Shown: piece by piece, positions 1-62,815 of the stretch
Numbering within the stretch: position 1 is the first letter of the stretch
Layout of the letters: every line of letters begins with the position of its first letter
NCBI GenBank assembly: GCA_049999805.1
Contig: JBNGIO010006370.1
Span: 249,212-313,211, forward strand
Length of the DNA stretch: 64,000 nt
Reading direction: 5' to 3'
From: Folioceros fuciformis
Taxonomy: Eukaryota
Made by a program: the position numbers and the translations under genes
The notes under the pieces: model-generated
What the model saw: only the letters and a program-made list of their open reading frames with translations
Database searches by the model: none
What the model was told of the DNA's origin: nothing

Positions 1-3000
1 CGAGTCCTTGTTTAGTCATTACAGGCCTGCTGTAGCCACCAACAAGGCGTTGTTAGGAGATGAGGTTACACGCACAGGACTGAGCATTCAAGGTTCCGGT
101 ACCTGTCGTTTTCGTCTTGTAGATGGCTCCATCCTTCATTTAGATGACGTTCTGCATGTTCCCCAGATGGCTAAGAATTTGGTATCTGTTAGCCAGCTCA
201 TGTCTCTTTGCCAGTACGACCTGCTGTTCACTTCGTCTGGCTATATGCTAACAAAATGAGGAGGAGATAAGCAGGTCGTAGCACATGGCATTCTGGTCCA
301 TGACTTGTATCTGCGAAGTGAAGCCTAGGAATAGTCTAGCGTCAGCTAGTCAACAATTAGGTTAAACTAAATGAGTTTTAGCTAGGGCTAGATAGCCTAA
401 TGTGAAAAGATACATAAACACAAAAAATACCTAACCGCCATGGCGTATGGCACAAGACACAAGACCTTGCTTTGTTATTACTACTACTACACACGATCAT
501 TCTCAATGCAAAAAAGATGGCTCTGATTTTTGTAGTATCAACTTGATTTTGTCAGCTTACCTGTCGACACAGCACATGTGGCCAAGTTGTCTAAGGCAGC
601 AGAGGCTAGTCTTTGGCATGCTAGACTTGGTCATGCTAATCGTGACAAGTTGATAAAGATGTCTCAACTTTCCTACTATAGAGAGCCCCTGCCAAAATGC
701 TTTAAGGATCTTCCTTCGTGTGACGCCTGTGTTATAGCCAAGCAAAAGGAGATTCCTTTTCCTAGGGCACCTGCACATCGTGCGTCCAACATTCTAAAAT
801 TAGTTCATGCAGACATATCTGGCAAGATACATATACCTAGTCTGGGAGGTGCACAGTATTATTTAACCCTCACAGATGACTACAGCCGTTACTCCTGGAC
901 TTACCCTATTGTTTTGAAGTCCGAGACTTTTACTGTGTTCCAGGAGTGTCTTGCTATGGTGCAGAGGCAAACAGGGTGCTTGCTCAAATGTCTCCGCACT
1001 GACAACGGCACAGAATTTGTGAATGCTCACTTTGACCAGTTTCTGCTTGACAGTGGTGTCATCAGGCAGTTGATTGTGCCATACACCAAGCAACAAAATG
1101 GAGTTGCTGAGCGGCGCCATCAGACCCTATTGGGCATGACAAGAAGCATGTTAGAATGGTCTGGCTTGAGCAAGACTTTCTGGGCGGAAGTAGTGGTAAC
1201 TGCTACTTACATTCTGAATCGTCTCTTGACAAGTGCAATGCCTGGGCAGACTCCCTTTGAAGTCATATGGAGGAGAAAACCCAGTCTTCTTCATCTCAGG
1301 GTGTTTGGGTCTCCAGCTTACGTTTATATCCTGCGGAGAAACGCAAGAAACTCGAAGACAAGGCAAAGCCTATGCTTTTCGTAGGATATGGCGAAGAAGC
1401 AAAGGCATACAAATTATATGACACACTTACAAAGACAGCAGTATTTGCTCGCAGTGTGACGTTCAAGGAGCTTCTTTGCCCAGCCAAGCCCTATTTTGAT
1501 TCTCTGCCACATCACCAGGAGTCCGTTACTCACATTGATCTGACGAACATGGATGATTCTTCAGGTTTTCCACAAGATGATGTTCCTTCAGAACCTGGAC
1601 AGTCCTTGGCATCCGTTCCGTCAGTTCCACCTCCAGATCAGCAGCCAGCTCATGTTCTACCTCCTGTAGCCAGACAGAACCCTGTAGCAGTTCCTGTCCC
1701 TGCTGATCTTCCCCCTCAAGATGCTTTGCCGACTGATCCTCACCCTGAAGATGCTGCAGACCATGCTGATTTTGCAGATGATGTTTCACATACGTCTCTA
1801 TCAGACTCTGCTAGTGACATCTCTGTTGTTGCTGAGGACCCCGCCATCCCTCTTGTTTTTCTTCCAGACCATGAGCCACCTCCTCGTTATCCTACTCGCC
1901 AGCGTCTGCCTCCTTCTCAGTGGGCAGAGCCTCCCTATGCCTCCATAGATTTTCGTAGACCTAGAGCCGGTGTTTCCCTTCCACAATCTTCACCCTCTCC
2001 CTTAGATGCTGGTTCCTCTGTCAAGCCAGAGCCTCGGTCTTACACAGAAGCTATCGAGGGCCCTGACAAGGATTTTTGGATTCCCTCTATTCAGGACGAG
2101 TATCAATCTCTCGTGAAAAATGATACAGGGAACTCTGTCCCCTGCCAGCAGGAAGAAAGGTGGTTAGCTGCAAATGGGTTTTCAAGCACAAATTGAACGC
2201 AGATGGTGAGATACCTAGATATAAATCTCGCCTGTGGGTTGTGGGTCTACACAAGTGCCTGGCGTGGACTTCACCGACACTTTTAGCCCTGTGGTTAAGA
2301 CTTAGTCCATCCGCATGATACTAGCCCTCGCTGCTGCCAATGCTTGGGATCTTCAGCAGATGGATGTCTGCACAACATTTTTATATGGCGAATTAGAAGA
2401 GGATATTTATATGGCTCAACCCGAGGGTTTCGCTGATCTTGACCACCCTGATTGGGTCTGTCGCCTAAAGAAAACGATCTACGGCCTTAAACAATCAGCT
2501 AGAGAGTGGTATAAAACAATTGATGCATACCTCAAGTCTATTGGTTTTCTTCAGAATCCTGTGGATGCCAATGTTTACCTCTATGCTTCAGGTGGCCGGA
2601 TTGTTATTCTGGCCTTGTATGTAGATGATGCTATATTAGCATCCAATGATCCTGGTTTGTTAGCTTGGGTCAAGCAAATGCTACATCAGAAATTTGATAT
2701 GAAGGATATCGGTTCTCTTACCTTTGTTCTTGGTGTTCAACTTGTTCGTGATTTGCCTTCCCGTACTATCATGCTCCACCAAGCCAAGTACATTCGTGAG
2801 ACCCTTCATCGTTCTCAGCTAGAGTCTGCTCATGCTGTTTCCACTCCTGGGGTCCCTGGCGCTAAACTCTCAGTTGCTCAGAGTCCTCAGACTGATGTTG
2901 ACAAACAGGATATGGCCCTTGTTCCTTATCGTCATGCTGTCGGTTGCTTGAATTATATCAGCTGTTGGACTCGTTCAGACATTTAATATGCCGTCAGTGC

Positions 3001-3920
3001 CGTCTCCCAGTTTCTTGATAACCTTGGTAGAGAGCACTGGGGAGCTGTTAAACGCATTCTGCGGTATTTGAAGGGTACTTTGCATTACGGCTTATGCTTC
3101 AGGGGGCGAAATACCGAGACTGAGCTTACCATTGCTGGTTTTGCTGATGCCGACTAGGCCACTGATCCCGATGCTCAGAGAAGCATATCCGCTTACTGCT
3201 TTACCCTGTCAAATGCAGCCATCCACTGGTGTTTAAAGAAGCAATTTTCAGTAGCACTCTCCTCCACGGAGGCTGAGTACAAAGCTTTAACTGAAGCAGC
3301 TAAGGAAGCAATCTGGGAACGCTGTTTCATGAAAGGCCTTGGTTTCCAGCACTCACAGTCGACATCTATCTTCTGTGATAACAGATTAACCATTGCCATG
3401 ACGGCTAACCCAAGATTCCATGCCCGTACAAAGCACATAGAAGTGCATCACCACTTTATTCTCCATTCTGTGGAAGAGAAGGAAGTCAAGATTCAGCACA
3501 TTTCCACATACTACAACCCAGATTCGCAATCTGCCATGTTTGCTCTGTCGCGAGCTCCCTCCATTTGTTGTGACCGCGCTGGTTTGCCCTAACCCTCGTG
3601 CGCCTTCTCCTTTTCTCTGCTCCTCACATACATGGTGATACAAGAGGAATACCGCGATCACGAAGGCACAGAGTGTTAGCAGTGTGTTCACAGTCTCCGC
3701 CATCCGCGTGTCACTCCATTATCAACAGCGTGCTCCGTTTACGGGGGCGTGTTGAGAATGAACCCCCGTTAGGGTTCATGGTCATATAAACTAACTGTCA
3801 TATAACTATAAGCTGTTAATAATAGTTAATTAGGTTATATGAACAGATGTGAATATACACAAGTTTTGTATAAGAGATATTGTGTGATTAACTAAAATCA
3901 TTAGTCTAAGTCTCTATATA
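1..3920 (+). mobile_element. Degenerate Ty1/copia LTR retrotransposon (pol region, PPT and start of 3' LTR); 5' part lies outside the window
   Basis: Copia domain order: protease/pre-integrase (LHVPQMAKNLVSVS; LWHARLGH...CDACVIAK), integrase (VHADISG, LRTDNGTEF, QQNGVAER), FVGY motif, RT (QMDV...FLYGELEEDIYMAQPEGF, LYVDD), RNase H (GFADAD*A, STEAEY, RTKHIEV). Several stops and frameshifts. PPT-like ACGGGGGCG at 3741-3749 is followed by TGTTGAGA at 3750. The LTR end was not resolved, so the end coordinate is approximate. Confidence 0.93.
312..534. mobile_element. 223-bp solo-LTR-like insertion nested in the copia pol gene
   Basis: Flanked by the 5-bp direct repeat GTATC (307-311 and 535-539). 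Starts TGCGAA and ends TTTGTA (a decayed TTCGCA). Removing it plus one repeat joins the frames of ORF 8..259 and ORF 578..1384 (..HDLYQLDFVSLPVDTAHVAK..). Confidence 0.8.
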
Positions 3921-13794: not shown

Positions 13795-14194
13795 NNNNNN
13801 NNNNNNNNNNNNNNNNNNNNNNNNNNNNNNNNNNNNNNNNNNNNNNNNNNNNNNNNNNNNNNNNNNNNNNNNNNNNNNNNNNNNNNNNNNNNNNNNNNNN
13901 NNNNNNNNNNNNNNNNNNNNNNNNNNNNNNNNNNNNNNNNNNNNNNNNNNNNNNNNNNNNNNNNNNNNNNNNNNNNNNNNNNNNNNNNNNNNNNNNNNNN
14001 NNNNNNNNNNNNNNNNNNNNNNNNNNNNNNNNNNNNNNNNNNNNNNNNNNNNNNNNNNNNNNNNNNNNNNNNNNNNNNNNNNNNNNNNNNNNNNNNNNNN
14101 NNNNNNNNNNNNNNNNNNNNNNNNNNNNNNNNNNNNNNNNNNNNNNNNNNNNNNNNNNNNNNNNNNNNNNNNNNNNNNNNNNNNNNNNNNNNNN
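13795..14194. other. Assembly gap (400 N)
   Basis: Run of N beginning after a C-run, upstream of the WAPL ATG. Confidence 1.
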
Positions 14195-34229: not shown

Positions 34230-36146
34230 CTAGTGGCCATCGCCACAGGAACAGCATCCTTCTACAAAACGATGAACACGGTGGGCATCTCGCACTATGA
34301 TCTCACGCTTCTCCACACGAGACATGATCTTGGTTCCACTGTGACAGTCATCACACATTCGAAGATTCTTCGTCACCAGAAGAGGTGTGCCATCAGCAGT
34401 GTTGAGCAGTCCAAATGCCAAAGCAAGCTTCTCGGCATGTCCACACAGGGCATCTTCCTTCTCCTGCTCGGGCACAGGCCTGAGCACGAGGTCTGTATGT
34501 GGGACATGGCCCCCCTCCTCTTTCAGCTGCAGATTTGCACTCTTCAGTCTGGAGGAGAGGTCCTCCCTCTCCTCGCCCACCACGAATGCATGGACCTTGC
34601 TTCCCACCTCGATCCAGGCCCTAGCAGGCTTCTTGCAGGCACCTGTGAGCTTTCTCAGGTTCTCAATGCTGTCCACGTCCTGCCACCTGCCAGCATCAGC
34701 ATAGATGTTCGACATGAGGACGTAAGCACCTGCGTACTGAGGTTCCAGTAGGATGAGGCGGTCGAAGCACCGTCTGCCACGAGCCACGTCCCCGTGGCTT
34801 CTGCACGCAGTTAGCAAGGATGTCCAACCTGCTACGGTCGTTTCGAATGGGACACCCAGCAGCAGCTTTTCGGCCTCGTCCAGGTGGCCTGCCCGTGCAA
34901 GAACATCCACCAGGCAGTTGTAGTGACAGGCGGCAGGAGTGATGCCATGGTCTTCCACCATCATCCGGAAATACTGCTGACCCTGTGTCACCAGCCCCTG
35001 GTGACTGCACGCCACCAGCAGACAGATGAATGTCGCATCGTCAGGCCCCACCCCATGCTGTTGCATTTCGCTGAAACACTTGACTGCCATTTGGCCTGCG
35101 TTGTGTTGGCCGTAGCCATTCAGCAAAGCATTCCATGTAACCACATCCTTTCTGGGCAGTCTGTCGAACACTCTTCGAGCATCGTCCAGGCTTCCGCACT
35201 TGGAGTACATGTCCACCAGGCTGTTGCCCACCACCACATCCCCTTCCAGGCCCCTTTCCTGGATTTGGAAATGAAGCTGCTTCCCCTGCTGCAATGCACC
35301 AACGCTCGCACATGCTTTCAGAAGGCACGAGTAAGTGAAATTCGTGGGGGCGGTGACACCCTGATCTTGCATGCTGGCATAAAGAGCAAGGGCTTCCTGT
35401 CCAAGTCCATGCTGGGTGTACCCAGAGATCATTGCATTCCATGTCACCACATCTCTCGAGGACAAGCTATCAAACACGCGCCGAGCATCCACTAAGCTGC
35501 CACATTTTGCATACATGTCCACCAGACAGTTGGAGACGAAAACATTCGCCTCTGTCCCGTTCCCTAGAACATCAGCGTGAACGAGCTTGCCAGCCGCCAG
35601 ATCCGCAGCACCTACACATGCCTTCAGGACTGCCGAGAATACATGGTTGTCCGGCTTCAAGCTCGTCGTCTGCATCATCAGATGATACAGCTCTATGGCT
35701 CGACCAGGCTGCCCATGCTCTGCATGGGCCAAGATGACAAAGGACCATGTGAAAGTGTTCGGTGCCGCCAGCTTGTGAAACACCTCCATCGCCTCCTGCA
35801 ACCTCCCATGAGACGAATACATGCGGATGAAGTGGTTGGCCAAAAATGTGTTGGACTCATGTCCACATTTAAGAGACAGTGCATGTACGTGCCTGCCGGA
35901 TACCAGATCCTTCCTTGCAATGCACCCCTTGACCACATGGTAGAAGAGAGATGCAGGAACGAACGACACCCGTTGCACCAAGAGGTCCAATGCATCAACT
36001 GCCACCCTCGGATGCCCCTGCTCGAAGAGCTTGGTCCAGCTTTCGAGCTCCAGAGGTGCCTCACACCATGCCACCCTGCAAGATTTGAGGACGTGATCAT
36101 CGAAAGGAAAGAAATGTAACCTCACACACTTAAGCAGCCACACCAT
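34230..36146 (-). CDS. PLS-class PPR protein with a variant DYW domain (KP type: KKPA, HAEK, terminal DGH)
   Basis: Uninterrupted ORF with PLS repeats (LVDMYAKCGSL, DVVTWNAMISGY) and an E domain, then KKPARAWIEV, HAEKLALAFGL, KNLRMCDDCH and CSCGDGH*. First ATG is at 36146; upstream exons are possible. Confidence 0.93.
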   Translation of the reverse strand: MVWLLKCVRLHFFPFDDHVLKSCRVAWCEAPLELESWTKLFEQGHPRVAVDALDLLVQRVSFVPASLFYHVVKGCIARKDLVSGRHVHALSLKCGHESNTFLANHFIRMYSSHGRLQEAMEVFHKLAAPNTFTWSFVILAHAEHGQPGRAIELYHLMMQTTSLKPDNHVFSAVLKACVGAADLAAGKLVHADVLGNGTEANVFVSNCLVDMYAKCGSLVDARRVFDSLSSRDVVTWNAMISGYTQHGLGQEALALYASMQDQGVTAPTNFTYSCLLKACASVGALQQGKQLHFQIQERGLEGDVVVGNSLVDMYSKCGSLDDARRVFDRLPRKDVVTWNALLNGYGQHNAGQMAVKCFSEMQQHGVGPDDATFICLLVACSHQGLVTQGQQYFRMMVEDHGITPAACHYNCLVDVLARAGHLDEAEKLLLGVPFETTVAGWTSLLTACRSHGDVARGRRCFDRLILLEPQYAGAYVLMSNIYADAGRWQDVDSIENLRKLTGACKKPARAWIEVGSKVHAFVVGEEREDLSSRLKSANLQLKEEGGHVPHTDLVLRPVPEQEKEDALCGHAEKLALAFGLLNTADGTPLLVTKNLRMCDDCHSGTKIMSRVEKREIIVRDAHRVHRFVEGCCSCGDGH

Positions 36147-36774
36147 GCTGCCAGCCACGTTGACCCATCACCAAAACATGCAGAAAGCAGATGGGAAAGT
36201 CTTTCACCTTTCAGACACCTCAGAGCCAACAAATCCAGCTTGGTCGGACAAAATCTTTGCTGATCGAACCTCCTCCACCCACGCAGGTTGGGAATCCACC
36301 CACAAGGCCTCTCTGGTTGCGCTGTGCACGAAGTCAGGATACCTGCGGCTGCTCTGCAAGGGTGGCAACAAATCAGGCCCACTGCTGCCAAGCCCATCTC
36401 TTCCACCAGATGGCACGGCAAGCTCTACGTACCTTATTCAACCTGGTGTCCCACCACAACGCAGGGTTGGACACGAATTTCCTCCACAGCGCGTCCCGCT
36501 GACTCGGATACACTGCAAAGCAGCGTCCTCCCCATCAGATTACGAGACAAGAAAAACGACTGCAAAGAACGAAGCACTCAGCACAAGGTAGCACACTCAC
36601 CGCCTATTGTGCGTTGCTCGGCCACCGGAGCCCGCAGCGATGAGAAATATCTGGGTCTGCGGGGAAGCAGCCTTGACACGATCTTCCGGCCTCCGCCACG
36701 CTTGATCATTGTTCTGGTCTCCTGCATGCAGGAATTCCAGCCCCGACACCACCGCCTGGCATTCTGCTTCAAGT

Positions 36775-47681: not shown

Positions 47682-49121
47682 CAAGTTGCAACATTCAGGA
47701 ACTCCGCCGCCGTATGGCTGGAAGGTATGCTGCTGCGGCTCCAGTGTGTGTGTGGTTGTTTTACAACGGTGTATCTCACATCTCTAAGGCCTTATGATGT
47801 GTCCAGATGGGACGTTGGGTGCGTGAACAGCAAGCTGCTCATCTGTCTCTGCGGGCTACTCGTAAAGAGATGAGCATCAGCTGTTGATCATCGCCCGTAC
47901 ATGATGTCATGACCGGGCTTGAATAATTCTGATTCAGCTCAGCATGGAAGACGGGTGTGAGACCAACAAGAACGTATTCATTTGCTAGACATGACATCAC
48001 AGCTTCATAGCTACGCAGGTGCAAGATGGGCGACGCAGTATATATCTGATAGCTTGTCGAAAAGTGTGGGTCTCGCTTGCATCTCTAAAGCATCGTGTTG
48101 CCGCGTTGTACTCTCTGAACATTTCCTAAGGCGAGGGTCGGCTACCATTGTCAGGGCTGGTTTCTGATGCGGAGGCGTCTGGCTTGTTCATGTTTTACGT
48201 CCCGCGAGCCGCAGCATTCTTTTCTCGTGAAAATCTGTGTTTCCGATGTGCTCTCGGAATGCGAGACAAAGTTGGATCGGTGTGTAGATGTTGCAAGTGT
48301 CGAATTAAAGATGACATTCCTTTTGCACTGGTTGGCATGATACACTAGACGATCCTCGTTCAGTTTCAGCAGTACGAGTAAAATCTGGAGTCACAGCGCC
48401 TATTGAACCTCATCCTGCAGCTGCTATTGTATCCTCTCCCATATTGTTACGTCGATTTCGTTGGAAATGCTCAGAATGCTGCATGAGCTGCATCAGGACG
48501 ACACCTCAGGAAACGTTAGGCGATTGGATTGCCTTGTCCGATACGACAAAAATTGCTCCTCAGGAGCAGGTGTTCTTCATGTGGCCCGTCAGTTTTGCTA
48601 TCGGACCACACTGCATCAAGGTTTCATTCGTCTATCAAGACTGAAGCTCAGGAATGCTCCATGGCAGCCAGAAGATTCCCAACAACTTTGAAAGCAAACG
48701 GATTTTCACTGAAACAATTGCAGCTGAGGGTAGGATTTGGCAGAGGCTTACCTTCTGTTTGTGGTGTACAGCTTGTGCCTTGCTTACTGAATCCATGGCT
48801 GTTGGTTGTGGTGGCTTGCAGGTGCGTTCAAGCATATGGACGTCATGTGTCAGGAATACTTGTGGGATCCTTTTCAGCAGGTGGACAAGGGCTCTAGCAA
48901 GGTACAGGGCTGCCCTAGTTTTCTGAAAGGCTTCGATTGATGTCTCTTGGCTCTATGGGTTTGATCCGTATCTGTCCAGCATGATCCCAGGTATCCAGAC
49001 TTCAAGCACGAGCAGTCAAAGGAGGGGCTGCAAGCAACGCTAGATGCAATGACGCAGCCAAGTGGATGTGAATATAGTTCGTCACAGGGTTACCGGAGGT
49101 TAGTATGCATGTTAGTGGTCA

Positions 49122-51965
49122 ATGCTGTTACAGTTGTGTTGTCTGAAATGCTCATCACGTTGCCGTACCTTGATCTGGCAGCGGGTTGTTACTTACCGCA
49201 GGTACCCAGAGGACGTGAGCCAACTTTGTAAAGGTGGTCATTTGAAGGAAGCATTGATCCGTCTGGATAGCCTTGGTGAACTGGGAATTAGGGTATCCAC
49301 CAATAGTTACGTTTGTGTTTTGCAGGAATGCATTAAAAGGAAAGCCTTGCGACAAGGCAGGCACGTGCATGCTCAAATGATCAAAAGTGGGTTGGATTTG
49401 AATATTCCTCTGGGAAGAAGCCTTGTAAGACTCTATGCCACATGTGGACAACCTGCACTGGCACATGAGGTTTTCTGCCAGATGCCCGAGGAGGATTTGT
49501 TTGCATTGACTGGACTTCTAAAGGGGTATGTCGATAACGGTCGAGCTGCTGAGGCTTTGAAGGTATTCTATGGAGTACAAAGGAGCTGTAAGGTAGACAA
49601 GTTCGTGTATGCCATCATAATCAATGCATGCGCAAGTTTGTCCAGTTTGGTTGAGGGCAGGCGAGCTCATGCTCGGATGTTTGAAGATGGGGTCAAGGCG
49701 GATGTTCTGGTGGATAACCTACTCCTTGCCATGTATGTCAAGTGCGGTAGCATCCTGGACGCACAGAAGCACTTCGAGAGGATGGCACAGCGTGATGTAA
49801 TATCATGGAATACGATGATCAGCGGGCACATCCAACATGGGGGCGGTGTTGATGCATTGTGCTTGTTTCAAGAAATGCTGCGGATTGGCCAGCCCCCTGA
49901 CGTGGTCACCTTCATTTGTGCAGCAAATGCATGCTCCACTATAAGAGATCTGGGAAAGAGCAAGCTTGTCCATGAGTATATACGGAAGGCTGGCACAATC
50001 CACTGTGCGTCTTTAAGCAATGCTCTGGTGCACATGTATGCAAGATGTGGAAGCCTGCAAGATGCTCTGGAAGTGTTCAATGGCATGTCACAGAGAGATG
50101 TAGTTTCCTGGAATGCCATTATACAAGGACATGCTGAGCAAGGGCTCGTAGAAGAAAGTTTTCAACTTCTGAAGCAGATGTGTAGCTGTGGATTGAAGCC
50201 TAATGTGGTCACCTTTCTATCTATGTTGCGAGTGTGTACAAACAGGGCAGTACTGGAAGAATGTAAACAGCTCCATGATCTTGTCATCAGGAGCGGCCTT
50301 GAATCAGATGTCTTTGTTGGCAACTCAATTCTGGACATGTATTCAAAGTGCGGAAGCCTACAAGATGCACGTCAAGCGTTTGATGGGATGTCTGCCAAAA
50401 ATGTAGTTTCATGGACAACTATGGTTGGAGCATATGCTCATGCTGGGCTTGGTGAAGAGGCCCTTGATCTGTATGAATTGATGCAACTGAAGTCAGTGGA
50501 GCCAAACAAGGTCACCTTCGTTTGTGCCCTGAAAGCATGTGCCACAGCTAGGGCACTGGACATGGGAAGGAGGATCCACAAGGACATTATTAACTGTAGA
50601 GTTGCTTTTGATGTTGTGTTGGAAACAGCCCTGGTGGATATGTATGGTAAATGTGGGGTTATTGATGAAGCCCATCTGATTTTCGACAACATGTCCTGCA
50701 GAAGTGTGGCGACGTGGAATGCAATGATAGCGTCGTGTGCTCAGAGTGGACATGAGGAAACTGCTCTTAATATTTTCCAGAAAATGCAACGGGAAGCCGT
50801 TAAACCAGACGTGGTCACCTTTGTTTCAGTGCTGAATGCATGCTCTGGACTAGCAGCACTAAAGGATGGCCAACAAGTCCACGCTTACATGATTCGTTGT
50901 GGGGAAGAATTAGACAACATTGTGCAAAATGCACTGGTGGACATGTATACTAAGTGCGGGAGTCTAGATTCTGCTCAGCAAGTTTTTGACAACATGCACG
51001 TTCGAGATGTTGTCTCATGGAATGCTCTTATCAAAGGATATGCCCAACATGGGTATGGTGATCGAGCTATGAATCTCTTCAAGCAGATGCAGCAAGAGGG
51101 GGTGAAACCTGACTTAGTTACATTTGCAGCGGTTCTAAATGGATGTGCAAGCATGGGAGCTTTGGCACAAGGCAGGTGGATCCACACCCTCATAACCAGA
51201 AGTGGACTGAGTGGTGAGACCTTTGTTGAGAATGCGCTTATAGACATGTATTCGAAGTGTGGGAGCATAGATGATGCTCGTGAAGTGTTTTGCAGAATGA
51301 CCAAACGTGATCCAGTCTCATGGAGTACAATGATTGCTGGCTATGCTCAGCATGGTTGTAGCAACCACTCTCTGATCCTTTTTGAAGAACTACTGCAAGA
51401 AGGTGTACCAGTTGACCACATAACGTTTGTTGGAGTGCTGTCAGCTTGCAGCCGTGTTGGACTTATTGAACGAGGAGTTAAGTACTTCAAATCTATGTAC
51501 ACCGATCATGGCATCACCCCCACGGATGCGCACTATGCGTGCCTCGTAGACCTTCTAGGCCGAGCAGGTCAGCTTGATGAAGCTTTTGAGGCTGTGAAAG
51601 GAATGCGATTCCAGCCGAGTGTGATGGTGTGGACATCACTGCTGGCAGCCTGTAGAATTCATAGGGATATAGAGCTTGCAGAAGAAGCCGCCAAACAGAT
51701 AATTGCGCTGGAACCCCAAAATGCTGCTGCTTTTGTTTTGCTAGCAAACACTTACGCAGCAGCGGGTAGAAGAGACGACCAACTGAGAGTACGGCAGATG
51801 ATGAGAGACAGCGGTGTGAAGAAACAACCTGGGCGAAGTTGGATCAGCGTCGAGAACCATGTGCATTTGTTCAATGCAGAAGACCTGTCACACCCACAAC
51901 GTGATGAGATTTATGCCATGGTGCAACAGTTAAACATACAAATTTCAGAGCACGGCTGTGCTTAG
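49122..51965 (+). CDS. Long PLS-class PPR protein, E+ type with canonical PG box
   Basis: 947-aa ORF of PLS triplets (DVVSWNA, VTFVSVLNAC, LVDMYTKCGSL). Ends VKKQPGRSWISV...DLSHPQRDEIY... and stops before any HxE/CxxC motif. The true start may be in upstream exons. Confidence 0.93.
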   Translation: MLLQLCCLKCSSRCRTLIWQRVVTYRRYPEDVSQLCKGGHLKEALIRLDSLGELGIRVSTNSYVCVLQECIKRKALRQGRHVHAQMIKSGLDLNIPLGRSLVRLYATCGQPALAHEVFCQMPEEDLFALTGLLKGYVDNGRAAEALKVFYGVQRSCKVDKFVYAIIINACASLSSLVEGRRAHARMFEDGVKADVLVDNLLLAMYVKCGSILDAQKHFERMAQRDVISWNTMISGHIQHGGGVDALCLFQEMLRIGQPPDVVTFICAANACSTIRDLGKSKLVHEYIRKAGTIHCASLSNALVHMYARCGSLQDALEVFNGMSQRDVVSWNAIIQGHAEQGLVEESFQLLKQMCSCGLKPNVVTFLSMLRVCTNRAVLEECKQLHDLVIRSGLESDVFVGNSILDMYSKCGSLQDARQAFDGMSAKNVVSWTTMVGAYAHAGLGEEALDLYELMQLKSVEPNKVTFVCALKACATARALDMGRRIHKDIINCRVAFDVVLETALVDMYGKCGVIDEAHLIFDNMSCRSVATWNAMIASCAQSGHEETALNIFQKMQREAVKPDVVTFVSVLNACSGLAALKDGQQVHAYMIRCGEELDNIVQNALVDMYTKCGSLDSAQQVFDNMHVRDVVSWNALIKGYAQHGYGDRAMNLFKQMQQEGVKPDLVTFAAVLNGCASMGALAQGRWIHTLITRSGLSGETFVENALIDMYSKCGSIDDAREVFCRMTKRDPVSWSTMIAGYAQHGCSNHSLILFEELLQEGVPVDHITFVGVLSACSRVGLIERGVKYFKSMYTDHGITPTDAHYACLVDLLGRAGQLDEAFEAVKGMRFQPSVMVWTSLLAACRIHRDIELAEEAAKQIIALEPQNAAAFVLLANTYAAAGRRDDQLRVRQMMRDSGVKKQPGRSWISVENHVHLFNAEDLSHPQRDEIYAMVQQLNIQISEHGCA

Positions 51966-53317: not shown

Positions 53318-55630
53318 TCATCCTGCAGATGCGCAAAATCGATCCTCGGAATCACTACCAACCTCTGCATCTATCTGCATTTGCAGCTCGTGGCAATCGG
53401 AAGGTGACTGACTACACAAGGTCTTGTTTGAAATGCCTTTAAAAACAGCAAAAGCATCAGGATGACAACTCAGAAATCGCGTAGCAAACGCGTCCTCTGA
53501 CACAACAAAGATTGTCCCCCAGGCGTAGTCCTTCTTCACGCACCCTGTCTGTTTGAGCAATTGAATCACCCTCCAGCGAGGCTTCATTCTCTGTTCAAGA
53601 CTGTAGCTCAGCAAAGCTGGAGTGCGGACTATGGCAGCCAAAGGAAGCCCAATATCCCTGAAAAAATTCATCTTCTCTGTCATGTAATCCTCCTTCACAT
53701 GGAAAATGGAAGGCTGCCGCATAACTAAGGACGTAACATCAGACCCAGAAAATCCAAAACTCAAAAGATGCTGATATCGAGCTCTCACTGTAGTGGCACC
53801 AATGCTGAAACAAAATGCTACACCATTGGCCATGGCAAGTGATCCCTCCTCGAACCCTAAATCCACTAGGAGTTTGACCAATACTGCAAGGCTTCCATCC
53901 ACAGCATGTGTAAGGACACGAGGCCGGCTGGCCACTAGTCTGCACAGCTTATCCCTCTGCAGCCCTATCCCTTGAAGAAAGGCCAAAGTCGGCTTCATCG
54001 ATCCTTCCACACTTCTTAACATCAGAGTTGGGCATGATGAAATCACCCTGCCAATCACTTGTTTCTTGATCCCAATGGACAACAGGAATTCAACCTTAGG
54101 AACCATAGAGCTTTGAACGCTCAAATCCATAATGCCTGGTGCTTTTTCGAATACCCTTTTGATGTTTACACCTAGGCTCTCTAGGTACGCAATTTTAGGC
54201 ATCAAGTTCTTTTCGATGCTATAATACAGAAGTTGTGGACAACGATCGATGATAGAACCAATGCTACTTTCAGCCACCCCTCTGTCACGCAAGAACTGGA
54301 GCTTAGGTAGCATAGTCTTTGCCATACTGAGACCAAGAATCTGGGGGCAACGCTGGAATATTGAAGGTAGTCTATTCCTTGGGACACCAATTTTCTCCAG
54401 GAACTCTATCTTAGGCTGAAGATTCTTCTCAGGACTCCTGTCAAGCAAGGATGGGTTAGAGGCAACAAAACTTTTGATATCACTGCCAACCGTCTGCAGA
54501 TACTCCATCTTGGATGCCAGATTACTCATCACTACCAACTGTGGGTGGCTTTGTATTGTCCTTGAGATCAGCAACGTGGACACCCCCAAGTCCCAGAGAA
54601 CTTGGATATTGTCAGATGCTTTGCTCCCATTGTCTCGAATCACTTCCTCAGGATTATACCTCAGGAGGAACCCAACAATCTCTTGCTTCAGTCCAATTCT
54701 TTCTACACATTGCAGCAAAGGTTGCAGCTCTTCTTCCAAATTGGTACTCAGAATCTTAGGGCAAACTTGCAACACGTCAACCAAATGACGGGTCGGAACT
54801 CCCAGCCTCTGCAGGGACAGAATCCTCTCTCGCATATCACTCGGACTACACTTCAGAAGTGTCATGCCGTCTTTCTCTACCAGTTTCCACAACCTGGTCA
54901 TGGGTAATCCATGTCTTTCCAATTCAGCTGCCAGGGCCAGTAGGCCACAATCCCCCTCCAGCTCAAAGGATGTTGAAGCCAACGTGTCAGCAATTCGCCC
55001 GGGATCTAGGCCAATGCTCTCTAGGAAAGGTTCTAACTCATTCACGTCATGTCTACTGAGGTAATCTTCAGCACAAAGGCGTAGCAAATCAGTCTTGCTG
55101 TCCTTCCCCTTACAATCCAATAGCAATTCCTGAAACACCTGATCATGCTTTACAGCCAGCACTAGCTTTCTAACAAAACTTGGGGAGTTCCTGCTTATGA
55201 AAGCAGTATACGCTGGGTTGATGTGCTTGCAATATTCCAGGTAGCTTTGCAGACAGTCAGCACCTGCTTTTATCTCATGTGTCCAGATCTTCATCCCTTT
55301 GGGTGCCTTGGCATCCAGCACAGTATTAGGCTGTGCCTTGGTTCCCACATGCCGTCGTCCTAGAAACCTGTGACAGGGACCCCACTTCGACAAAGCCTTC
55401 CCACCATTCCAAGGCAGTGACAGTTGAGATGAACATTTCAGCAAATCTACTTCCCTCTTCAGCACACTGGCAGCGTTGGGGCACATCAAGGTATCATATT
55501 GCTTCGACATCCAGACCGGAGCCAACATAAGAGGCAAGTCAGCTGACCCACCGTCATTCTGCTGCTGGCTAGCCCTGAGCTTGCCTAGCAGTCTGCCTGC
55601 TGCTCGCCTGCAGTGCGCATTGCACCACAT
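53318..55630 (-). CDS. mTERF family protein, intronless
   Basis: Repeated LxPKIxFLxxIG...PQILGLS / PQLLYYSIEKNLMPK units and terminal PALLSYSLEQRMKPR. N-terminus resembles an organellar targeting peptide. Confidence 0.92.
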   Translation of the reverse strand: MWCNAHCRRAAGRLLGKLRASQQQNDGGSADLPLMLAPVWMSKQYDTLMCPNAASVLKREVDLLKCSSQLSLPWNGGKALSKWGPCHRFLGRRHVGTKAQPNTVLDAKAPKGMKIWTHEIKAGADCLQSYLEYCKHINPAYTAFISRNSPSFVRKLVLAVKHDQVFQELLLDCKGKDSKTDLLRLCAEDYLSRHDVNELEPFLESIGLDPGRIADTLASTSFELEGDCGLLALAAELERHGLPMTRLWKLVEKDGMTLLKCSPSDMRERILSLQRLGVPTRHLVDVLQVCPKILSTNLEEELQPLLQCVERIGLKQEIVGFLLRYNPEEVIRDNGSKASDNIQVLWDLGVSTLLISRTIQSHPQLVVMSNLASKMEYLQTVGSDIKSFVASNPSLLDRSPEKNLQPKIEFLEKIGVPRNRLPSIFQRCPQILGLSMAKTMLPKLQFLRDRGVAESSIGSIIDRCPQLLYYSIEKNLMPKIAYLESLGVNIKRVFEKAPGIMDLSVQSSMVPKVEFLLSIGIKKQVIGRVISSCPTLMLRSVEGSMKPTLAFLQGIGLQRDKLCRLVASRPRVLTHAVDGSLAVLVKLLVDLGFEEGSLAMANGVAFCFSIGATTVRARYQHLLSFGFSGSDVTSLVMRQPSIFHVKEDYMTEKMNFFRDIGLPLAAIVRTPALLSYSLEQRMKPRWRVIQLLKQTGCVKKDYAWGTIFVVSEDAFATRFLSCHPDAFAVFKGISNKTLCSQSPSDCHELQMQIDAEVGSDSEDRFCASAG

Positions 55631-56127
55631 GACAAGCTTTTTCAACGGGGACTATCGCGAATCATCCCTCCTGTACCATGTTCACAAAGCGTGAGCTTTC
55701 GCGGGGCGAACCGACCCGCTTATCCTCCCTCACCCCTCAAGCAAACCTCCGAACCCTTAACTTCATCGCACCGTTCGTACCAGTAGCGTTGGAAGTTAAG
55801 GGAACCGGGGAGGAATTGGATCCCGGGAGGGATTGGCCAAATATAGTGAAGTGACACGAGCGGAATGGGACGGCGCGGGAGGCCCGAGCAACTTCCGGCG
55901 ATACTGTAGTTGGTTTTATTCTTAAGGGTTTTAGGGTTTAAGGGAGAGAAAAAAAACCGGAAGAGGCGTAAAAACCTGAAGAGTAGGAAAAGAAACCCGA
56001 AGACAGCCGAAGGCCAAAAAAGGGACAGGCTGGTAAACAAGCATGTCTATGTTCAAGTCAGTAACTGAAACATCCCATTCGATTAGAAGGCAGCATTCCA
56101 GCATGCCAAGCCCACTACTGGACCGAT

Positions 56128-57290
56128 TCAGACAAAGCCACCAACATCTGCCATGGCACGCTCTGCATCTCGTCCGGACTTGTCCAAGCTAGCTACATGA
56201 TCAAGCTGGCGGAGTGCTTCGTAGACTCCAATCCCCACAGACACTGAAAGGTTCAAGCATCTGACGTAGGTCTCGCAGATGGGAATGCGAGCAGCACCGC
56301 CCGCATGCACTCCATCTGTGCTCTCTCGAATGGCTGCACTGGGAAGGCCATCAACCTCCGACCCAAACAATAACCAGTCCCCAGGCCTGTACGTGACATC
56401 CTGGCCAGTCCAACAAACGCACAGTATCACCACAGCCCACCTTACAGAATGTGAAGAGCAGACAAGAGCAACACCAGTGTACCGTATACAAGGTAGTGCC
56501 TCTCTTGGTGAACGCCACCAATCTCTTTTCACCTTCCTGCTTCAGGAAGTACTGGAAGAATTCGTCCCAACTCGGGTGAATCCGAACTACAACGTATCTG
56601 TGGCAGGTTAGGTCAAGCTAGTCCGGAACGGAATGGGCAAGAGATGAAGAAGAAAGGCAGGCCCTAGCCTGGGGTTAGGATACGGCCAGTAATCTAAGCC
56701 AGCTCGCTTGAGCTTCGCGTCAGAAATCTGGTACCCTAGTGGCTGGAACACAGACACGGAAGACAGGTTTATGCCAAGCAACCGCAGGTGCAGGATGCAG
56801 TTCAGCTGCTTCCAAGACACTGGCAGTACCTCGACTAAGTGTAACGCGACTTCAGCAGCGGCACATGTCCTGGCAATGCTGCCTGTGTTGCCGGGGATCT
56901 GAGAGCAGGCTGGTCATGATCAGCAGGCAGTAGAAGAACGAGTGGAGAAAGCTTGAATGGAGCTACATACCTGAGGTGATACCAAGACAACATTGAGGAG
57001 CTTGAGACCCGACTGAACCGTCTCGTGTGGCCTCTTACTCACGTCCGTGACGAGCTCCGTGCTTCCATTCTGCACAGCTGCCATGCAGACACTACAGGAA
57101 AAAGATGAGCATACATGGCTCGCGGGAGCTCGCCATCCGATTCCGATGAGGAAACATGCACTTCGGACCTGCGATCAATGCGACCTTTGGTGCACCCGCG
57201 AATCGCCGCAGGTGCATGGCTCCGCCGGGCGTAGGATGACCTCCAGGAGCAGAGAGGGGAGGGCGCCATCGCCCTTCTCGCCGCCATCAT
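56128..57290 (-). CDS. trmL: tRNA (cytidine/uridine-34 2'-O)-methyltransferase, TrmL/SpoU family, multi-exon
   Basis: NVVLVSPQ|IPGNTGSIARTCAA, PLGYQISDAKLKRAGLDYWP, WLLFGSEVDGLP, VRCLNLSVSVGIGVYEALRQL. Arg/Ser/Ala-rich N-terminus. Confidence 0.9.
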
Positions 57291-58867: not shown

Positions 58868-59690
58868 CTGATGTGTCCGGAAGACATCACCCGTTGCTTG
58901 CCCCTCCTCATTGGCTAAGTGGCAGATGCCGCAGTACGTAGAAGCGATGTGTCTGAAGGAAATCAATCTCTGCCCGCCTCTCTGCGTAGACTAAGTAGCT
59001 GCACATGGCACTATAGCAGTGATGTGTCAGAAGGACATCAGACTCTGCTTGCCTCTCTGTGTAGGCTCAGTAACTGATGTAGCAGTGCAGTTGTGATGTG
59101 TCTGAGAGACGTCAGTCTCTGCCTGCTTCGCTGCATGATTGAGATTGATTTGGAAGAGGCATCAACCTCTGCTGGCCTCTGTGCAAACGCATTAGGAGTG
59201 GTGGACATCACTGAACGTATCTGAAAGACATCACTCTCTGCTTGCCCTCAAGCTCTGCGTGGGGTTTAGAAGTAATGGAGTTCTGGCAGATGTAGATACT
59301 TCGTTTGCTTCTGTGTCTGAAAGACATACAGCCGTTGTGTGCCTCCCTACTTACGCTAGTCGCCATTCGGGCATGTCTGAGTGTTGCTTGCCTCTATGCC
59401 TAGGGTTGTAGTTCTGGTGTGTGTGATAGTGATCAAATCGCTCGTTGTTTGCCTCTGTGCCTAGAATTGTAGCACTGGTGTTTGAAAGAATGATCGATGT
59501 CGCTCTTTGCTTGCCTCTGCGCCTAGGATTGCAGTACTGGTGTTCGAAAGAATGATCAATGTCGCTCTTTTCTTGCCCTGTGCCCAGGATTGTAGTGCTG
59601 ATGTTTGAAATGATCATCAATGTCGCTGTTTGCTTGCCTCCGTGCCTAGGACTGTAAGACTGATTGTTGTTGGAACGACATCACCTGTTT
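58868..59690. repeat. Degenerate tandem array: about 75-bp units grading into about 62-bp units
   Basis: Recurrent core tgtgtctgaaagacatca...tgcttgcctct(g/c)tg. The 3' block has the unit tgtttgaaagaatgatcaatgtcgctctttgcttgcctctgtgcctaggattgtagtactgg in about 5 copies. Confidence 0.8.
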
Positions 59691-59721
59691 GCGTCCAGGG
59701 TTTATCAAGGAGGAACTAGTC

Positions 59722-60507
59722 ATGGATTTCAGAGGCGCATTTTTCCTGCTGTTGGTTGTGCTACGCACTTGCAGGGCCGACGGGCCATCGCTGTCCGACC
59801 CGACACTGAAGGAGATCGCGCAGGAGCTGGTGTCGAGCGCAGAGAACTCGTCGCTGGATTGGCAAGCTCAGTACGGGTACATCGAGGACATCGGCGACGG
59901 GAGAGGCTACACGGCGGGGATCGTAGGCTTCTGCTCCGGCACGGGGGACATGGTGCAGGTGGTGGAGCTCTACGCGCAGCGGAAGCCCGACGACAACGTG
60001 CTTGCCAAGTACCTGCCGGCCCTGCGGAAGCTGGCCGCGGAAGGGAGCCCGTCTCACAAAGGGCTGGACCCCTCCTACCCTCACGACTGGCGGAAGGCGG
60101 CCAAGGACCCCGCCTTCCAGGAGGCACAGGACGACATGCGCGACAGCATTTACTTCAACCCCTCAGTCCAGCAAGGACAACAGGACGGGCTCCGTCCACT
60201 GGGACAGTTCGCGTACTACGACGCGGCTGTGATGCATGGAACCGACGGCATGGAGGCTATTCGGGGCCGCGCGCTCAGGCGAGCGGATCCGCCGGCTGCA
60301 GGTGGCGACGAGTCCGCCTGGTTGAGAGTGTATCTGGACGAGCGCAAGAAGGAGATGCGTAAGGAGGCCGCGCACGAGGACACCAGCCGCGTCGATACCG
60401 AGCAGCTCGTCTTCCTCCGCCAGAAGAACTTCGATCTCAACCTGCCGCTTCACTGGAAGGTCTACGGCGACTCGTACCATATTACGCACATTCCACATCG
60501 TCCTTGA
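59722..60507 (+). CDS. csn: Secreted chitosanase, glycoside hydrolase family 46, actinobacterial type, intronless
   Basis: Signal peptide MDFRGAFFLLLVVLRTCRA, then KEIAQELVSSAENSSLDWQAQYGYIEDIGDGRGYTAGIVGFCSGTGDM (GH46 signature with catalytic Glu and Asp), LAKYLPAL, LGQFAYYDAAVMHG, EAAHEDTSRVDTEQ and PLHWKVYGD. Confidence 0.96.
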   Translation: MDFRGAFFLLLVVLRTCRADGPSLSDPTLKEIAQELVSSAENSSLDWQAQYGYIEDIGDGRGYTAGIVGFCSGTGDMVQVVELYAQRKPDDNVLAKYLPALRKLAAEGSPSHKGLDPSYPHDWRKAAKDPAFQEAQDDMRDSIYFNPSVQQGQQDGLRPLGQFAYYDAAVMHGTDGMEAIRGRALRRADPPAAGGDESAWLRVYLDERKKEMRKEAAHEDTSRVDTEQLVFLRQKNFDLNLPLHWKVYGDSYHITHIPHRP

Positions 60508-60815
60508 CGGGTAACTTATCAGAGCTCTGATCGGCGGACGCTTGAGGACCCCACCCGGACGCGGTATCAGTAAGACAATTAACATAGAGATGTTGCTCAC
60601 TAAACCACACTACCTATAAAGGCGGAACATCATAAATACGCAGATACATGGGAAGTTACAATAAAGTATGAGAAAGGCGTCGTATACTGCAATACTATAA
60701 TTCCAAAAATGTTAAAAGTATTTTAAAAAAGAAATAAATTATATATAATATATTAGAGTCCATTGTGTCACAGTGGATACGATGTTAGTGAGTTGTGTTC
60801 AGTTTCCTTGTTTAG

Positions 60816-62815
60816 CTACCCTTTGTGTCTAATGGTGGCAGCTAGGATGCTTACACCATCAGATCTGTCCTGAAGTCCAGCTGATTCCAGGTGCGGAACA
60901 TACCCTTGATTCTTGATTCTGGGTACAAGGTGTTGCAGAAGTGCATATATTGCGTCACTCTCGTCGTGGGTTTTATCACCGACCAGAAAGGTGTGCACCT
61001 GTCCATGGATGTCTGTCCACCAGCTCTGGCCTGGCTCCTTCCATGCCCCAATGCCTATTCTCCTGGCCTGCATCTCCACTGCCTGCTCCCACATGTGAAC
61101 ACTGGTGTACAAGTTTGACATCAATACGTATGGAGAAGCATCTGTTTCATCTAGCTTTACTGCTTCATCAAATGCATGGCGTCCCACCACCACGTTGCCC
61201 CACTTCCGGAAGGCGCTTAACAGAGTGTGCCAAACTGCAGCATGGGGGTCTACAGGCATGGTCCTCACAACTGCCAGTGCTTCGTCCAGATGGCCAGCAC
61301 GACCCAGAAGATCCACCATGCAGACGTAATGCTTTGTGGTGCGAGGGATGGAGTAGTGTGTGCTCATTGCCTCAAAGTACTCCTGCCCCTGTGTTACAAG
61401 GCCCACGTGACTGCATACTGTGAGAACACTGAGGAACGTGATGCCATTTGGCTGCAACCCATCCTCTCTCATTCTGTGGACCAGGTCCAAGACCATGGCA
61501 CTGTTTCCCTGACGAGCGTATCCGGCAATCAGTGCATTCCAGGCGACATCGTCTCTTTTGGGCAAGGCATCGAACACCACCTGTGCATCAAGCAAGCTGC
61601 CAGACTTTGCATACATGTTTATCAAACTGATGGCCACAAACGCATCAGCCTGGAGCCCTTGTTGCACAATCTCAGCATGGAGCTGCTTACCTGGATTCAA
61701 AGCTGCCACATTTGCACATGCTTGCAGGAGGCACACAAATGTAACCGAATTAGGTGACGCACCTCCTCCTTGCTGCATAGCACTGTGAAGGCGGAGAGCT
61801 TCCTGAACCATGCCTTGCTGGGCATATCCCGCGATCATGGCATTCCAAGTCACCACGTCCTTCCGACCCAGTTCATCAAACAGGCTCTGAGCCTCCTCGA
61901 GGCTGCCACATTTTGCATACATGTTGACCAAACTGTTGGCTACAAACATGTTATTATGAAACCCTTGCTCTCTAATCTGTGCATGAAGACGCTTCCCCTT
62001 CTCCAGAGCAGTGAAATCCACACTTGCACATGCTTGCAGGAGGCAGACATATGTCACAGAATTGGGTGCAGCTATGCCTTCATGTCGCATTTCACTGTAA
62101 AAATGAAAGGCTTCCTGACCCATGCCCTGCTGGGAATAGCCTAATATCAAAGAGGTCCAGGTCACCACATTCTTCTCATGAAGCCTGTCAAACACGCTCC
62201 TCGCTTGCTCCAGGCTCCCGCACTTTGCATACATGTCCACCAAACAACTGCAAACAAACACATCTGGGTCACCACCAGCGGCCAGCAAGTCAGCATGGAC
62301 CAACTGCCCAGATCGCAGGTCTGCTGCTCTCGCGCAAGCCTGTAGCGCTGCAACAAACACATGCCCGTCTGGATTCATCCTCGACCTGCGCATCCTGTGA
62401 TACAGCTCTATGGCCTGCACAACCTGCCCATGTCTAACATGGGCAGAAATGATGGACGACCACATGAAGGCATCTGGAGTGGCAACCGAGGTGAACACCG
62501 CCATCGCTTCCTGCAAGGTGGCGTGAGAAGCATACATCCGCAAAATGTGATTGCACAAGAACGTGTCCAAATGATACCCACTTTTCACCATCAGAGCATG
62601 CACACGGCGGCCCAGAACGACATCCTTCCTGAACGAACACTTTTTGAGGACGGTGAAGAGGAGGAGGGATTTGGAAACAGGACGGCCAGCCTGACCTGCA
62701 GCAAACCTTCCAGAGTGTCCAAGGCATCATGGAGCTGTCCCTGCTGACACAGATTGCGCACTGTTGCATCGCTCACTTCGAACTCGTGTCCCGGGCCTCA
62801 GAGTCTCCGTGCCAT
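60816..62815 (-). pseudogene. PLS-class PPR with WW-type C-terminus and truncated DYW; 5' end disrupted
   Basis: The 595-aa ORF 60816..62603 has PLS repeats and KEPGQSWWTDIHGQVHTF. The upstream part (ATG 62815, LCQQGQLHDALDTL) contains TGA at 62798-62800 and a frameshift near 62690-62698. Confidence 0.7.

Follow-up and report, generated by a model that had tools for sequence, protein, structure and literature searches.

The 64,000-nucleotide stretch of Folioceros fuciformis DNA analyzed in this work (assembly GCA_049999805.1, contig JBNGIO010006370.1, forward-strand positions 249,212 to 313,211; referred to below as the window, with positions counted from its first letter) contains, within plant nuclear DNA and between plant-like flanks, an open reading frame (ORF) for a chitosanase of glycoside hydrolase family 46 (GH46), a member of clan GH-I. 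The coding sequence is located at positions 59722..60507 of the plus strand and is complete: it consists of 261 codons and a TGA stop and runs as one uninterrupted, intron-free frame, which opens after a stop codon at 59647-59649 and has its first in-frame ATG at 59722. A gene for a pentatricopeptide repeat (PPR) protein follows downstream, and a methyltransferase gene lies upstream. As argued below, this arrangement is probably the outcome of an old transfer from an actinobacterium to a plant, the ORF being a real, single-copy nuclear plant gene on which purifying selection would act and whose product would be a secreted chitosanase.

The ORF is the sole copy in the 64-kb window, and a tblastn search found no further GH46 copy or fragment there. 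Its GC content is 0.627, and the GC content of its third codon positions (GC3) is 0.798. The latter value exceeds those of all 8 host ORFs measured in the window (0.29-0.735) and is lower than those of all 21 actinobacterial homologues measured (0.83-0.98). Since GC3 lies above the host ORFs and below the bacterial homologues, the gene would look like one that has partially adjusted to its host, for which an intermediate value is the expected pattern. Along the locus, GC content is 0.61-0.69 across the ORF, 0.46-0.49 upstream and 0.28-0.47 downstream, a sharp island bounded by the ORF ends. An earlier reading of the same DNA, made from its letters alone (the original prediction), had described an intact, intronless, GC-rich ORF with strong G/C bias at the third position, and the values given here agree with that description.

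Family Membership, Fold and Catalytic Residues

The translated ORF (protein P0001) matches the Pfam profile PF01374 (Glyco_hydro_46) from the first to the last position (1-210 of 210, E 6.5e-93, 310.6 bits versus a cut-off of 27). Among sequences of solved structures in the Protein Data Bank, it aligned with the enzymes of Streptomyces sp. SirexAA-E (4ILY, E 2.6e-95), Streptomyces N174 (1CHK, 3.8e-90) and OU01 (4OLT, 4.1e-74), each alignment spanning essentially the entire mature chain. Identity is 61-63% to cluster-A Streptomyces structures and 18-35% to Bacillus-type structures. Assignment to cluster A is by nearest solved structure, since the three structures just listed are those named as cluster A in PMC4663542, and the trees described below held no labelled members of clusters B-E.

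An AlphaFold2 model built from a 29-sequence alignment has a mean predicted local distance difference test score (pLDDT) of 92.2 and a predicted template modelling score (pTM) of 0.88. When this model was used as a query for Foldseek, 13 matches were returned at E<=0.001, all of them chitosanases. The nine nearest (entries of 4ILY, 1CHK, 4OLT, 4QWP, 7C6C, 6LWU and 7C6D) have template modelling scores of 0.82-0.87 by query (TMq) and 0.86-0.96 by target (TMt), and the other four have a TMq of 0.58-0.65. Judged by its TMt of 0.86-0.96 against 4ILY, 1CHK, 4OLT and 4QWP, the predicted model has the two-lobed, mainly alpha-helical, lysozyme-like fold of GH46. The profile match, the 1CHK alignment and the fold all bear out the N174-type GH46 assignment made in the original prediction.

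The same is true for the two motifs in which that prediction had placed the catalytic Glu (SAEN) and Asp (GDGRG). They are found as S39-A40-E41-N42 and G58-D59-G60-R61-G62, and in the 1CHK alignment E41 is paired with E22 and D59 with D40. Functional residues were mapped by hand, by carrying the 1CHK alignment over to Table 1 of PMC4663542. On this mapping, the codon at 59842..59844 (plus strand) specifies E41, the putative general acid (E22 of the N174 enzyme, CsnN174, where it closes the N-terminal helix), and the codon at 59896..59898 (plus strand) specifies D59, the putative general base (D40), which is followed by R61 (R42) and T64 (T45). In the 242 other GH46 rows of the domain set described below, the respective columns contain E in 238, D in 229, R in 232 and T in 239.

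The window protein retains 11 of the 12 CsnN174 residues of general function (L24, E41, W47, D59, R61, T64, W123, D167, R208, R223 and W245), the remaining one being a conservative change from F97 to Y119. The Arg-Asp-Arg network (D145, R190 and R205 in CsnN174) corresponds to D167, R208 and R223, all of which are in columns that are >=95% conserved. Residues that contact the substrate in CsnN174 are identical in 17 of 22 cases; two of the others, G52 and A65, are in the state of the 4ILY enzyme, SACTE_5457, while V68, T174 and E219 differ mildly. At these two positions, the SACTE_5457 state has been tied to accommodating the acetyl group of N-acetylglucosamine (GlcNAc) at subsite +1 (PMC4663542). 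Sharing this state, G52 and A65 suggest that a partly acetylated substrate would be tolerated. Taken together, the alignments and the model show a predicted protein equipped with all that a cluster-A GH46 enzyme needs.

N-Terminal Leader and Predicted Mode of Action

The first 19 codons (59722..59778, plus strand) specify a presumed eukaryote-type signal peptide. Judged by eye, it has a charged n-region (MDFR), a nine-residue hydrophobic core (A6-L14) and, in C17-R18-A19, small residues at -3/-1 before D20, the point where mature bacterial enzymes begin. In the AlphaFold2 model, residues 1-20 lie outside the domain with a pLDDT of 56-58. These 19 codons have no bacterial counterpart, and nucleotide similarity to bacteria starts at position 59776. 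The leaders of bacterial homologues are ~35-50 residues long and Arg-rich, many of them with paired arginines. At the other end, the window protein has a short additional C-terminal tail, T-H-I-P-H-R-P. A signal peptide had also been proposed in the original prediction, and a presumed 19-residue leader, outside the fold and of low pLDDT, fits that proposal.

In the scheme that we favour, the gene would descend from an actinobacterial GH46 chitosanase gene of cluster A (the Streptomyces N174 type). Of that gene, only the stretch for the mature enzyme would have been retained, with the bacterial export leader swapped for a short eukaryotic signal peptide. Because of this replacement, the protein would be expected to enter the secretory pathway and to be delivered to the apoplast. 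It would act as an inverting endo-chitosanase (EC 3.2.1.132), in which E41 is the general acid and D59, tuned by R61, the general base; the attacking water would be positioned by T64 and the cleft stabilized by the D167-R208-R223 network. Mucoromycota have chitosan in their walls, and non-seed plants form symbioses with Mucoromycota and Glomeromycota fungi. The likely substrates would be chitosan in walls of the Mucoromycota type or the deacetylated chitin of invading fungi, and the expected outcome would be damage to the fungal wall together with the release of chitosan oligomers that are sensed by plants. While secretion and enzymatic activity, like the fungal target and the role in the plant, are what we infer, a role against chitosan-rich fungal walls in defence or symbiosis, which the original prediction had put forward, is a reasonable one for a protein of this sequence.

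A different emphasis is conceivable. The enzyme may be functional and secreted and yet serve mainly for signalling in mutualism, in which it would trim chitosan, or chitin that is still partly acetylated, from Mucoromycota or Glomeromycota partners into oligomers, or it may act on some other glucosamine-containing polymer. The symbioses of non-seed plants with such fungi, a matter of general knowledge, would be in line with this. So would G52 and A65, given the link of the matching SACTE_5457 residues to a GlcNAc acetyl group at +1, and the fact that chitosan oligomers elicit antifungal responses of plants (PMC4663542). The transgenic precedents, in contrast, report disease resistance (PMC4663542), and signalling and lysis are not distinguished by the sequence, just as defence, symbiotic signalling and a combination of both cannot be separated by it. 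We consider a primarily signalling enzyme unlikely and retain the broader reading of a secreted chitosanase directed at fungal chitosan.

A Second Copy and Signs of Constraint

The protein most similar to P0001 is a database protein of 262 amino acids, P0002, which is 87% identical to it; the next best matches are at ~70%. P0002 shares its N-terminus (MDFRGA..LLLLVVLRTC) with P0001, as well as the short C-terminal tail past the bacterial end. The two proteins differ at 33 aligned positions, which corresponds to a divergence of 13%.

Conservation was assessed in a domain set of 292 sequences (121 proteins, P0001-P0121, 150 representatives and 21 locus translations), 244 of which cover >=205 profile positions. 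The differences between P0001 and P0002 fall on columns that are variable in bacteria, with a mean entropy of 2.38 versus 1.36 at identical positions (Mann-Whitney p 8e-11). Columns that are >=95% conserved in the 242 non-plant rows are kept in both P0001 and P0002 without exception (31/31), as are those defined in the same way in the 59 ingroup rows of the smaller tree (69/69). When the threshold is lowered to 90%, 48 of 49 columns are kept for the 242 rows; for the 59 ingroup rows, 97 of 105 are kept in P0001 and 96 of 105 in P0002. We therefore read P0001 and P0002, from their sequences, as two diverged orthologues that appear to be under purifying selection. Since they look like constrained, diverged orthologues, both contamination and a dead gene are hard to reconcile with the data.

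The latter possibility, a relic that is genuinely integrated yet silent or decaying and without function, has some points in its favour: a search of 59201-59721 gave no TATA-like motif, and a minisatellite (described in the next section) lies directly upstream. However, the frame is intact across all 261 codons, the start codon and the signal peptide are conserved in P0002, and near-invariant columns are all kept in both copies despite 13% divergence, with the differences concentrated on variable columns. A relic is thus improbable.

Genomic Setting

Downstream of the chitosanase ORF, at a distance of 308 bp, lies a minus-strand PLS-class PPR gene (60816..62603) that has E and E+ motifs and is without a DYW domain, as identified by Pfam. 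Its best named relatives are from land plants (Diphasiastrum, Calypogeia, Sphagnum, ferns and gymnosperms), with 37-44% identity. The 308-bp spacer between the converging 3' ends of the GH46 and PPR genes (60508..60815) is AT-rich (GC 0.373) and contains AATAAA at 60660 and 60733, which are candidate polyadenylation sites. Upstream, 2.8 kb from the ORF, is a split SpoU/TrmL-type methyltransferase gene of at least two exon-like pieces (56131..56913, minus strand). The SpoU_methylase profile is matched at its positions 10-34 by a piece in 56611-56913 and at its positions 90-142 by one in 56131-56541. Each match alone is below the gathering cut-off; the two are collinear and represent the start and end of the profile, as expected of a spliced gene.

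The presumed promoter or 5' untranslated region contains a tandem repeat (59384..59656) with a 61-bp unit in 4.4 copies that ends 66 bp before the start codon. A second minisatellite, with a 75-bp unit in 2.5 copies, is located further upstream, at 58946-59134. Neither of the two was found elsewhere in the window.

The extent of bacterial similarity was determined by comparing the 55-64 kb part of the window with 21 actinobacterial loci and their flanks (up to 1.5 kb each). In blastn, similarity to the actinobacterial GH46 genes covers 59776..60482 (plus strand) at its full nucleotide extent, which corresponds to the mature catalytic domain, with 66.9-71.1% identity over long matches. When 830 bacterial ORF pieces were used as tblastn queries, 146 of the 147 matches fell inside 59600-60600, and the other one, at 56819-56944, was marginal (E 6e-4). 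Apart from that marginal match, no co-transferred bacterial DNA was found beside the ORF with these 830 pieces. The sole run of N in the window is at 13795-14194, and there is none within 45 kb of the chitosanase gene. At the level of the assembled window, then, the ORF is linked to host DNA and carries no donor flanks. Its position between plant genes, a spliced TrmL and a PPR, had been noted in the original prediction, and it holds in this analysis.

Could a bacterial read or contig, from an endophyte or from soil, have been misjoined into the plant scaffold? Such an assembly artefact would agree with the ORF being a GC island and with its best named relatives being common soil Streptomyces; the linkage, too, is that of the assembled sequence. 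It does not agree with the lack of a bacterial flank, as similarity ends at 59776 and 60482 with one marginal match among 830 queries, or with the absence of nearby N runs. The eukaryote-like, non-bacterial leader recurs in P0002, an independent record; the nearest bacterial protein is only ~70% identical; and GC3 is below that of every one of the 21 bacterial homologues. We regard an artefact as very improbable and treat the ORF as an integrated plant gene in what follows.

Origin and Phylogeny

The 21 loci found in a collection of bacterial and archaeal genomes are all from Actinomycetota (Streptomyces, Streptantibioticus, Amycolatopsis, Actinoallomurus, Rugosimonospora and others). The protein search yielded 5997 matches, of which the best 120 were considered, along with the best 150 of 1377 representatives, the latter being without names. 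All 64 of the best 120 matches that carry an organism name (counted by hand) are actinobacterial, and the other 56 are nameless. The named ones belong to Streptomyces, Actinoplanes/Amorphoplanes, Planosporangium, Krasilnikovia or Nonomuraea, at 66-70% identity. No other plant-named GH46 is present among the best 120 of 5997 matches.

Two trees were built. The quick one, a maximum likelihood tree under LG+G4, contains 139 rows, which are the 244 full-domain rows minus near-duplicates above 85% identity. In this tree, P0001 and P0002 group with a support of 100 inside a 26-row clade (97 in the Shimodaira-Hasegawa-like approximate likelihood ratio test, SH-aLRT) that contains Streptomyces, Amycolatopsis and Amorphoplanes and excludes other lineages of Actinomycetota. 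The second tree, calculated under a mixture model, contains 61 chosen rows: the pair, 18 of the 21 loci (L005, L019 and L020 were omitted), 9 named matches and 32 sequences without a name. Its bootstrap did not converge; with this caveat, the pair is recovered at 100/100 on a long stem of 0.71 changes per column and is excluded from a 14-row Streptomyces clade (100/99). A stem of this length suggests that the event is old or that change after it was fast.

The original prediction is supported in every part that the analysis covered. The proposed BLASTP check gave the anticipated answer, as the named relatives are all actinobacterial at ~66-70% identity. Nesting within Actinomycetota was obtained in the quick LG+G4 tree (SH-aLRT 97), while the mixture-model backbone provided no resolution. 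An actinobacterial source of the gene is well supported by the sequence comparisons. An attempt to name a donor genus was abandoned because the backbone of the mixture-model tree lacks the necessary resolution.

Two kinds of carrier were considered and rejected. Phage GH46 sequences are distant: those of Streptomyces phages are 34.6-39.1% identical in the 10 listed of 30 matching records, and all 30 are below 60%. Matches of 60-67% in a plasmid collection lie on very large replicons of Streptomyces, Embleya and Nonomuraea, and chromosomal genes are at least as close.

An ancient, vertically inherited plant or algal gene, or a virus-borne gene of the chlorovirus type, is hardly credible, with the proviso that no chlorovirus sequences were in the trees. 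In its favour are the cluster C GH46 of chloroviruses, the apparent gain of GH46 by mycoparasitic Pythium in this way (PMC7720654) and the depth of the match lists, which comprise 120 of 5997 matches and 150 of 1377 representatives. Against it, the window protein shares 61-63% identity with cluster-A Streptomyces structures and ~70% with Streptomyces proteins, phage sequences remain at the lower identities given above, no other plant-named GH46 appears among the best 120, and by 2015 the family had not been reported from plants or animals (PMC4663542).

Several features of the family were observed in the course of these comparisons. A GH46-like "chitosanase/glycoside hydrolase" is found in 30 genomes of Streptomyces phages, where its role is not obvious. 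In two Streptomyces loci, L011 (624-1298) and L015 (488-1189), a second GH46-like stretch is located directly upstream; these are tandem paralogues. Multiple GH46-like stretches per chain are present in P0242 (1159 amino acids, four stretches) and P0247 (2422 amino acids, three stretches), and in the quick tree P0242 groups with good support among proteins that are mostly very long, far from the actinobacterial group.

Other Features of the Window

A Ty1/copia retroelement with gag-pre-integrase, integrase core and RVT_2 domains in several shifted frames, probably degenerate, is located at 536-3592 (plus strand; Pfam). The 400-base N run at 13795-14194, an assembly gap, lies in an apparent multi-exon minus-strand gene at ~9.9-14.3 kb. 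Two more PLS-class PPR genes were identified by Pfam: one at 34233-36167 (minus strand) with a complete DYW deaminase domain that ends in GDGH rather than DYW, and one at 49116-51965 (plus strand) that ends after the E motif. Together with the gene at 60816-62603, three PLS-class PPR genes are thus found within 30 kb. An intronless ORF of 777 codons with an mTERF domain (Pfam E 1.1e-102) is located at 53318-55651 (minus strand); in a set of 5.8 billion proteins, it has only 3 matches at E<=1e-20, the best of them with 26% identity. An EMC7 exon is also present in the window, according to Pfam.

Discussion

The gene is confirmed as real, and its acquisition by horizontal transfer is well supported. 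Several observations weigh against the reading proposed at the outset and should be set beside it. P0002 comes from a contig of 2475 bp and is at most a candidate plant protein. The linkage of the window gene is that of the assembly, and its transcription and secretion are predictions from sequence. The backbone of the mixture-model tree is a polytomy of Actinomycetota and nameless sequences in which the attachment of the pair is not placed. Further eukaryotic copies could exist beyond the best 120 of 5997 matches and the best 150 of 1377 representatives. Finally, the single N-glycosylation sequon, N42-S43-S44, adjoins the catalytic Glu, and glycosylation there might lower activity. With these points taken into account, we still hold the old actinobacterium-to-plant transfer to be probable.

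Early-diverging land plants are known to have received genes from soil bacteria, and far fewer of these transfers combine a clear biochemical function with an obvious ecological target. Ordinary plant chitinases handle chitosan poorly. As a target, chitosan is present in the walls of Mucoromycota and is made by pathogens to hide from chitin receptors. It is possible, with chances that we would put slightly below even, that the window gene is the first natural GH46 of a land plant and that a non-seed lineage captured an actinobacterial enzyme, added a secretion signal to it and kept it as an apoplastic weapon or a chitosan sensor. If so, a plant-encoded GH46 would be a new enzyme family in the immune or symbiotic toolkit of plants, and it would provide a natural test of the idea that chitin deacetylation is a means of fungal evasion that hosts can counter. 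Evolution would also have reached the same solution as the engineers of transgenic rice and tobacco. The gene is small, intronless and close to well-studied enzymes, which makes activity, specificity, localization and knockout phenotypes directly testable.

No published plant GH46 was found in the literature, supplementary lists of horizontally transferred genes not being covered, and the main text of the Anthoceros genomes paper (PMC8075897) makes no mention of horizontal transfer or chitosan. The gene may already be contained in a supplementary list of the Anthoceros angustus paper (PMC7027989) or of the 2022 survey of horizontal transfer in plants.

Comparison with Known Systems

The gene adds to two known kinds, the cluster-A GH46 enzymes and the bacterial genes domesticated by non-seed plants. 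With the former, represented by CsnN174 (1CHK) and SACTE_5457 (4ILY), the window protein shares the family, the predicted fold, the E/D/R/T set, the Arg-Asp-Arg network and the single-domain architecture. A pair of C-terminal beta-strands, described as a feature of cluster A (PMC4663542), is also present in its model. It differs from the two bacterial enzymes in its leader, which is a 19-residue one of presumed eukaryote type in the plant-encoded protein and a 35-50-residue leader for Sec or Tat export in the bacteria, and the GC3 of its gene is lower. Relative to 1CHK, it has two small deletions, one insertion and the additional tail T-H-I-P-H-R-P.

Among eukaryotes, the GH46 genes of Pythium oligandrum and P. 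periplocum resemble the window gene in that they were gained horizontally, lie among conserved host genes and have been proposed to attack fungal walls (PMC7720654). The Pythium enzymes, however, group in cluster C with those of chloroviruses, from which a viral donor was inferred (PMC7720654), whereas the window gene is cluster-A-like with a probable actinobacterial donor; and their hosts are mycoparasitic oomycetes, while that of the window gene is a photosynthetic land plant. The first eukaryotic GH46 sequences, reported in 2015, were two from Lichtheimia (PMC4663542). The enzyme of Lichtheimia ramosa is eukaryotic too, but it is fungal and cysteine-rich and is affiliated with clusters C/D, a description that sets it apart from the protein studied here (PMC4663542).

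As to the second kind, Anthoceros angustus carries a horizontally acquired glycosyl hydrolase (AANG004297), a glucuronyl hydrolase and three families derived from Actinobacteria, which the main text leaves without names (PMC7027989). The carbohydrate enzymes of bacterial origin among them represent the same type of event, from a bacterium to a non-seed plant, with a glycoside hydrolase of the secreted type and a GC content above the host average. The family of AANG004297 is not named in the main text of PMC7027989, and it could be GH46 or another one.

Bacterial chitosanases have also been introduced into plants on purpose. The chitosanase of Streptomyces N174 is reportedly active in transgenic tobacco. 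Expression of the bacterial GH46 chitosanase MH-K1 in rice raised resistance to blast (PMC4663542). The effect was explained by the deacetylation of fungal chitin, which the rice blast pathogen carries out on its own chitin, and by oligomers with elicitor activity (PMC4663542). Whereas these rice and tobacco plants contain an engineered bacterial chitosanase, the window gene would be a natural acquisition that has been retained in evolution.

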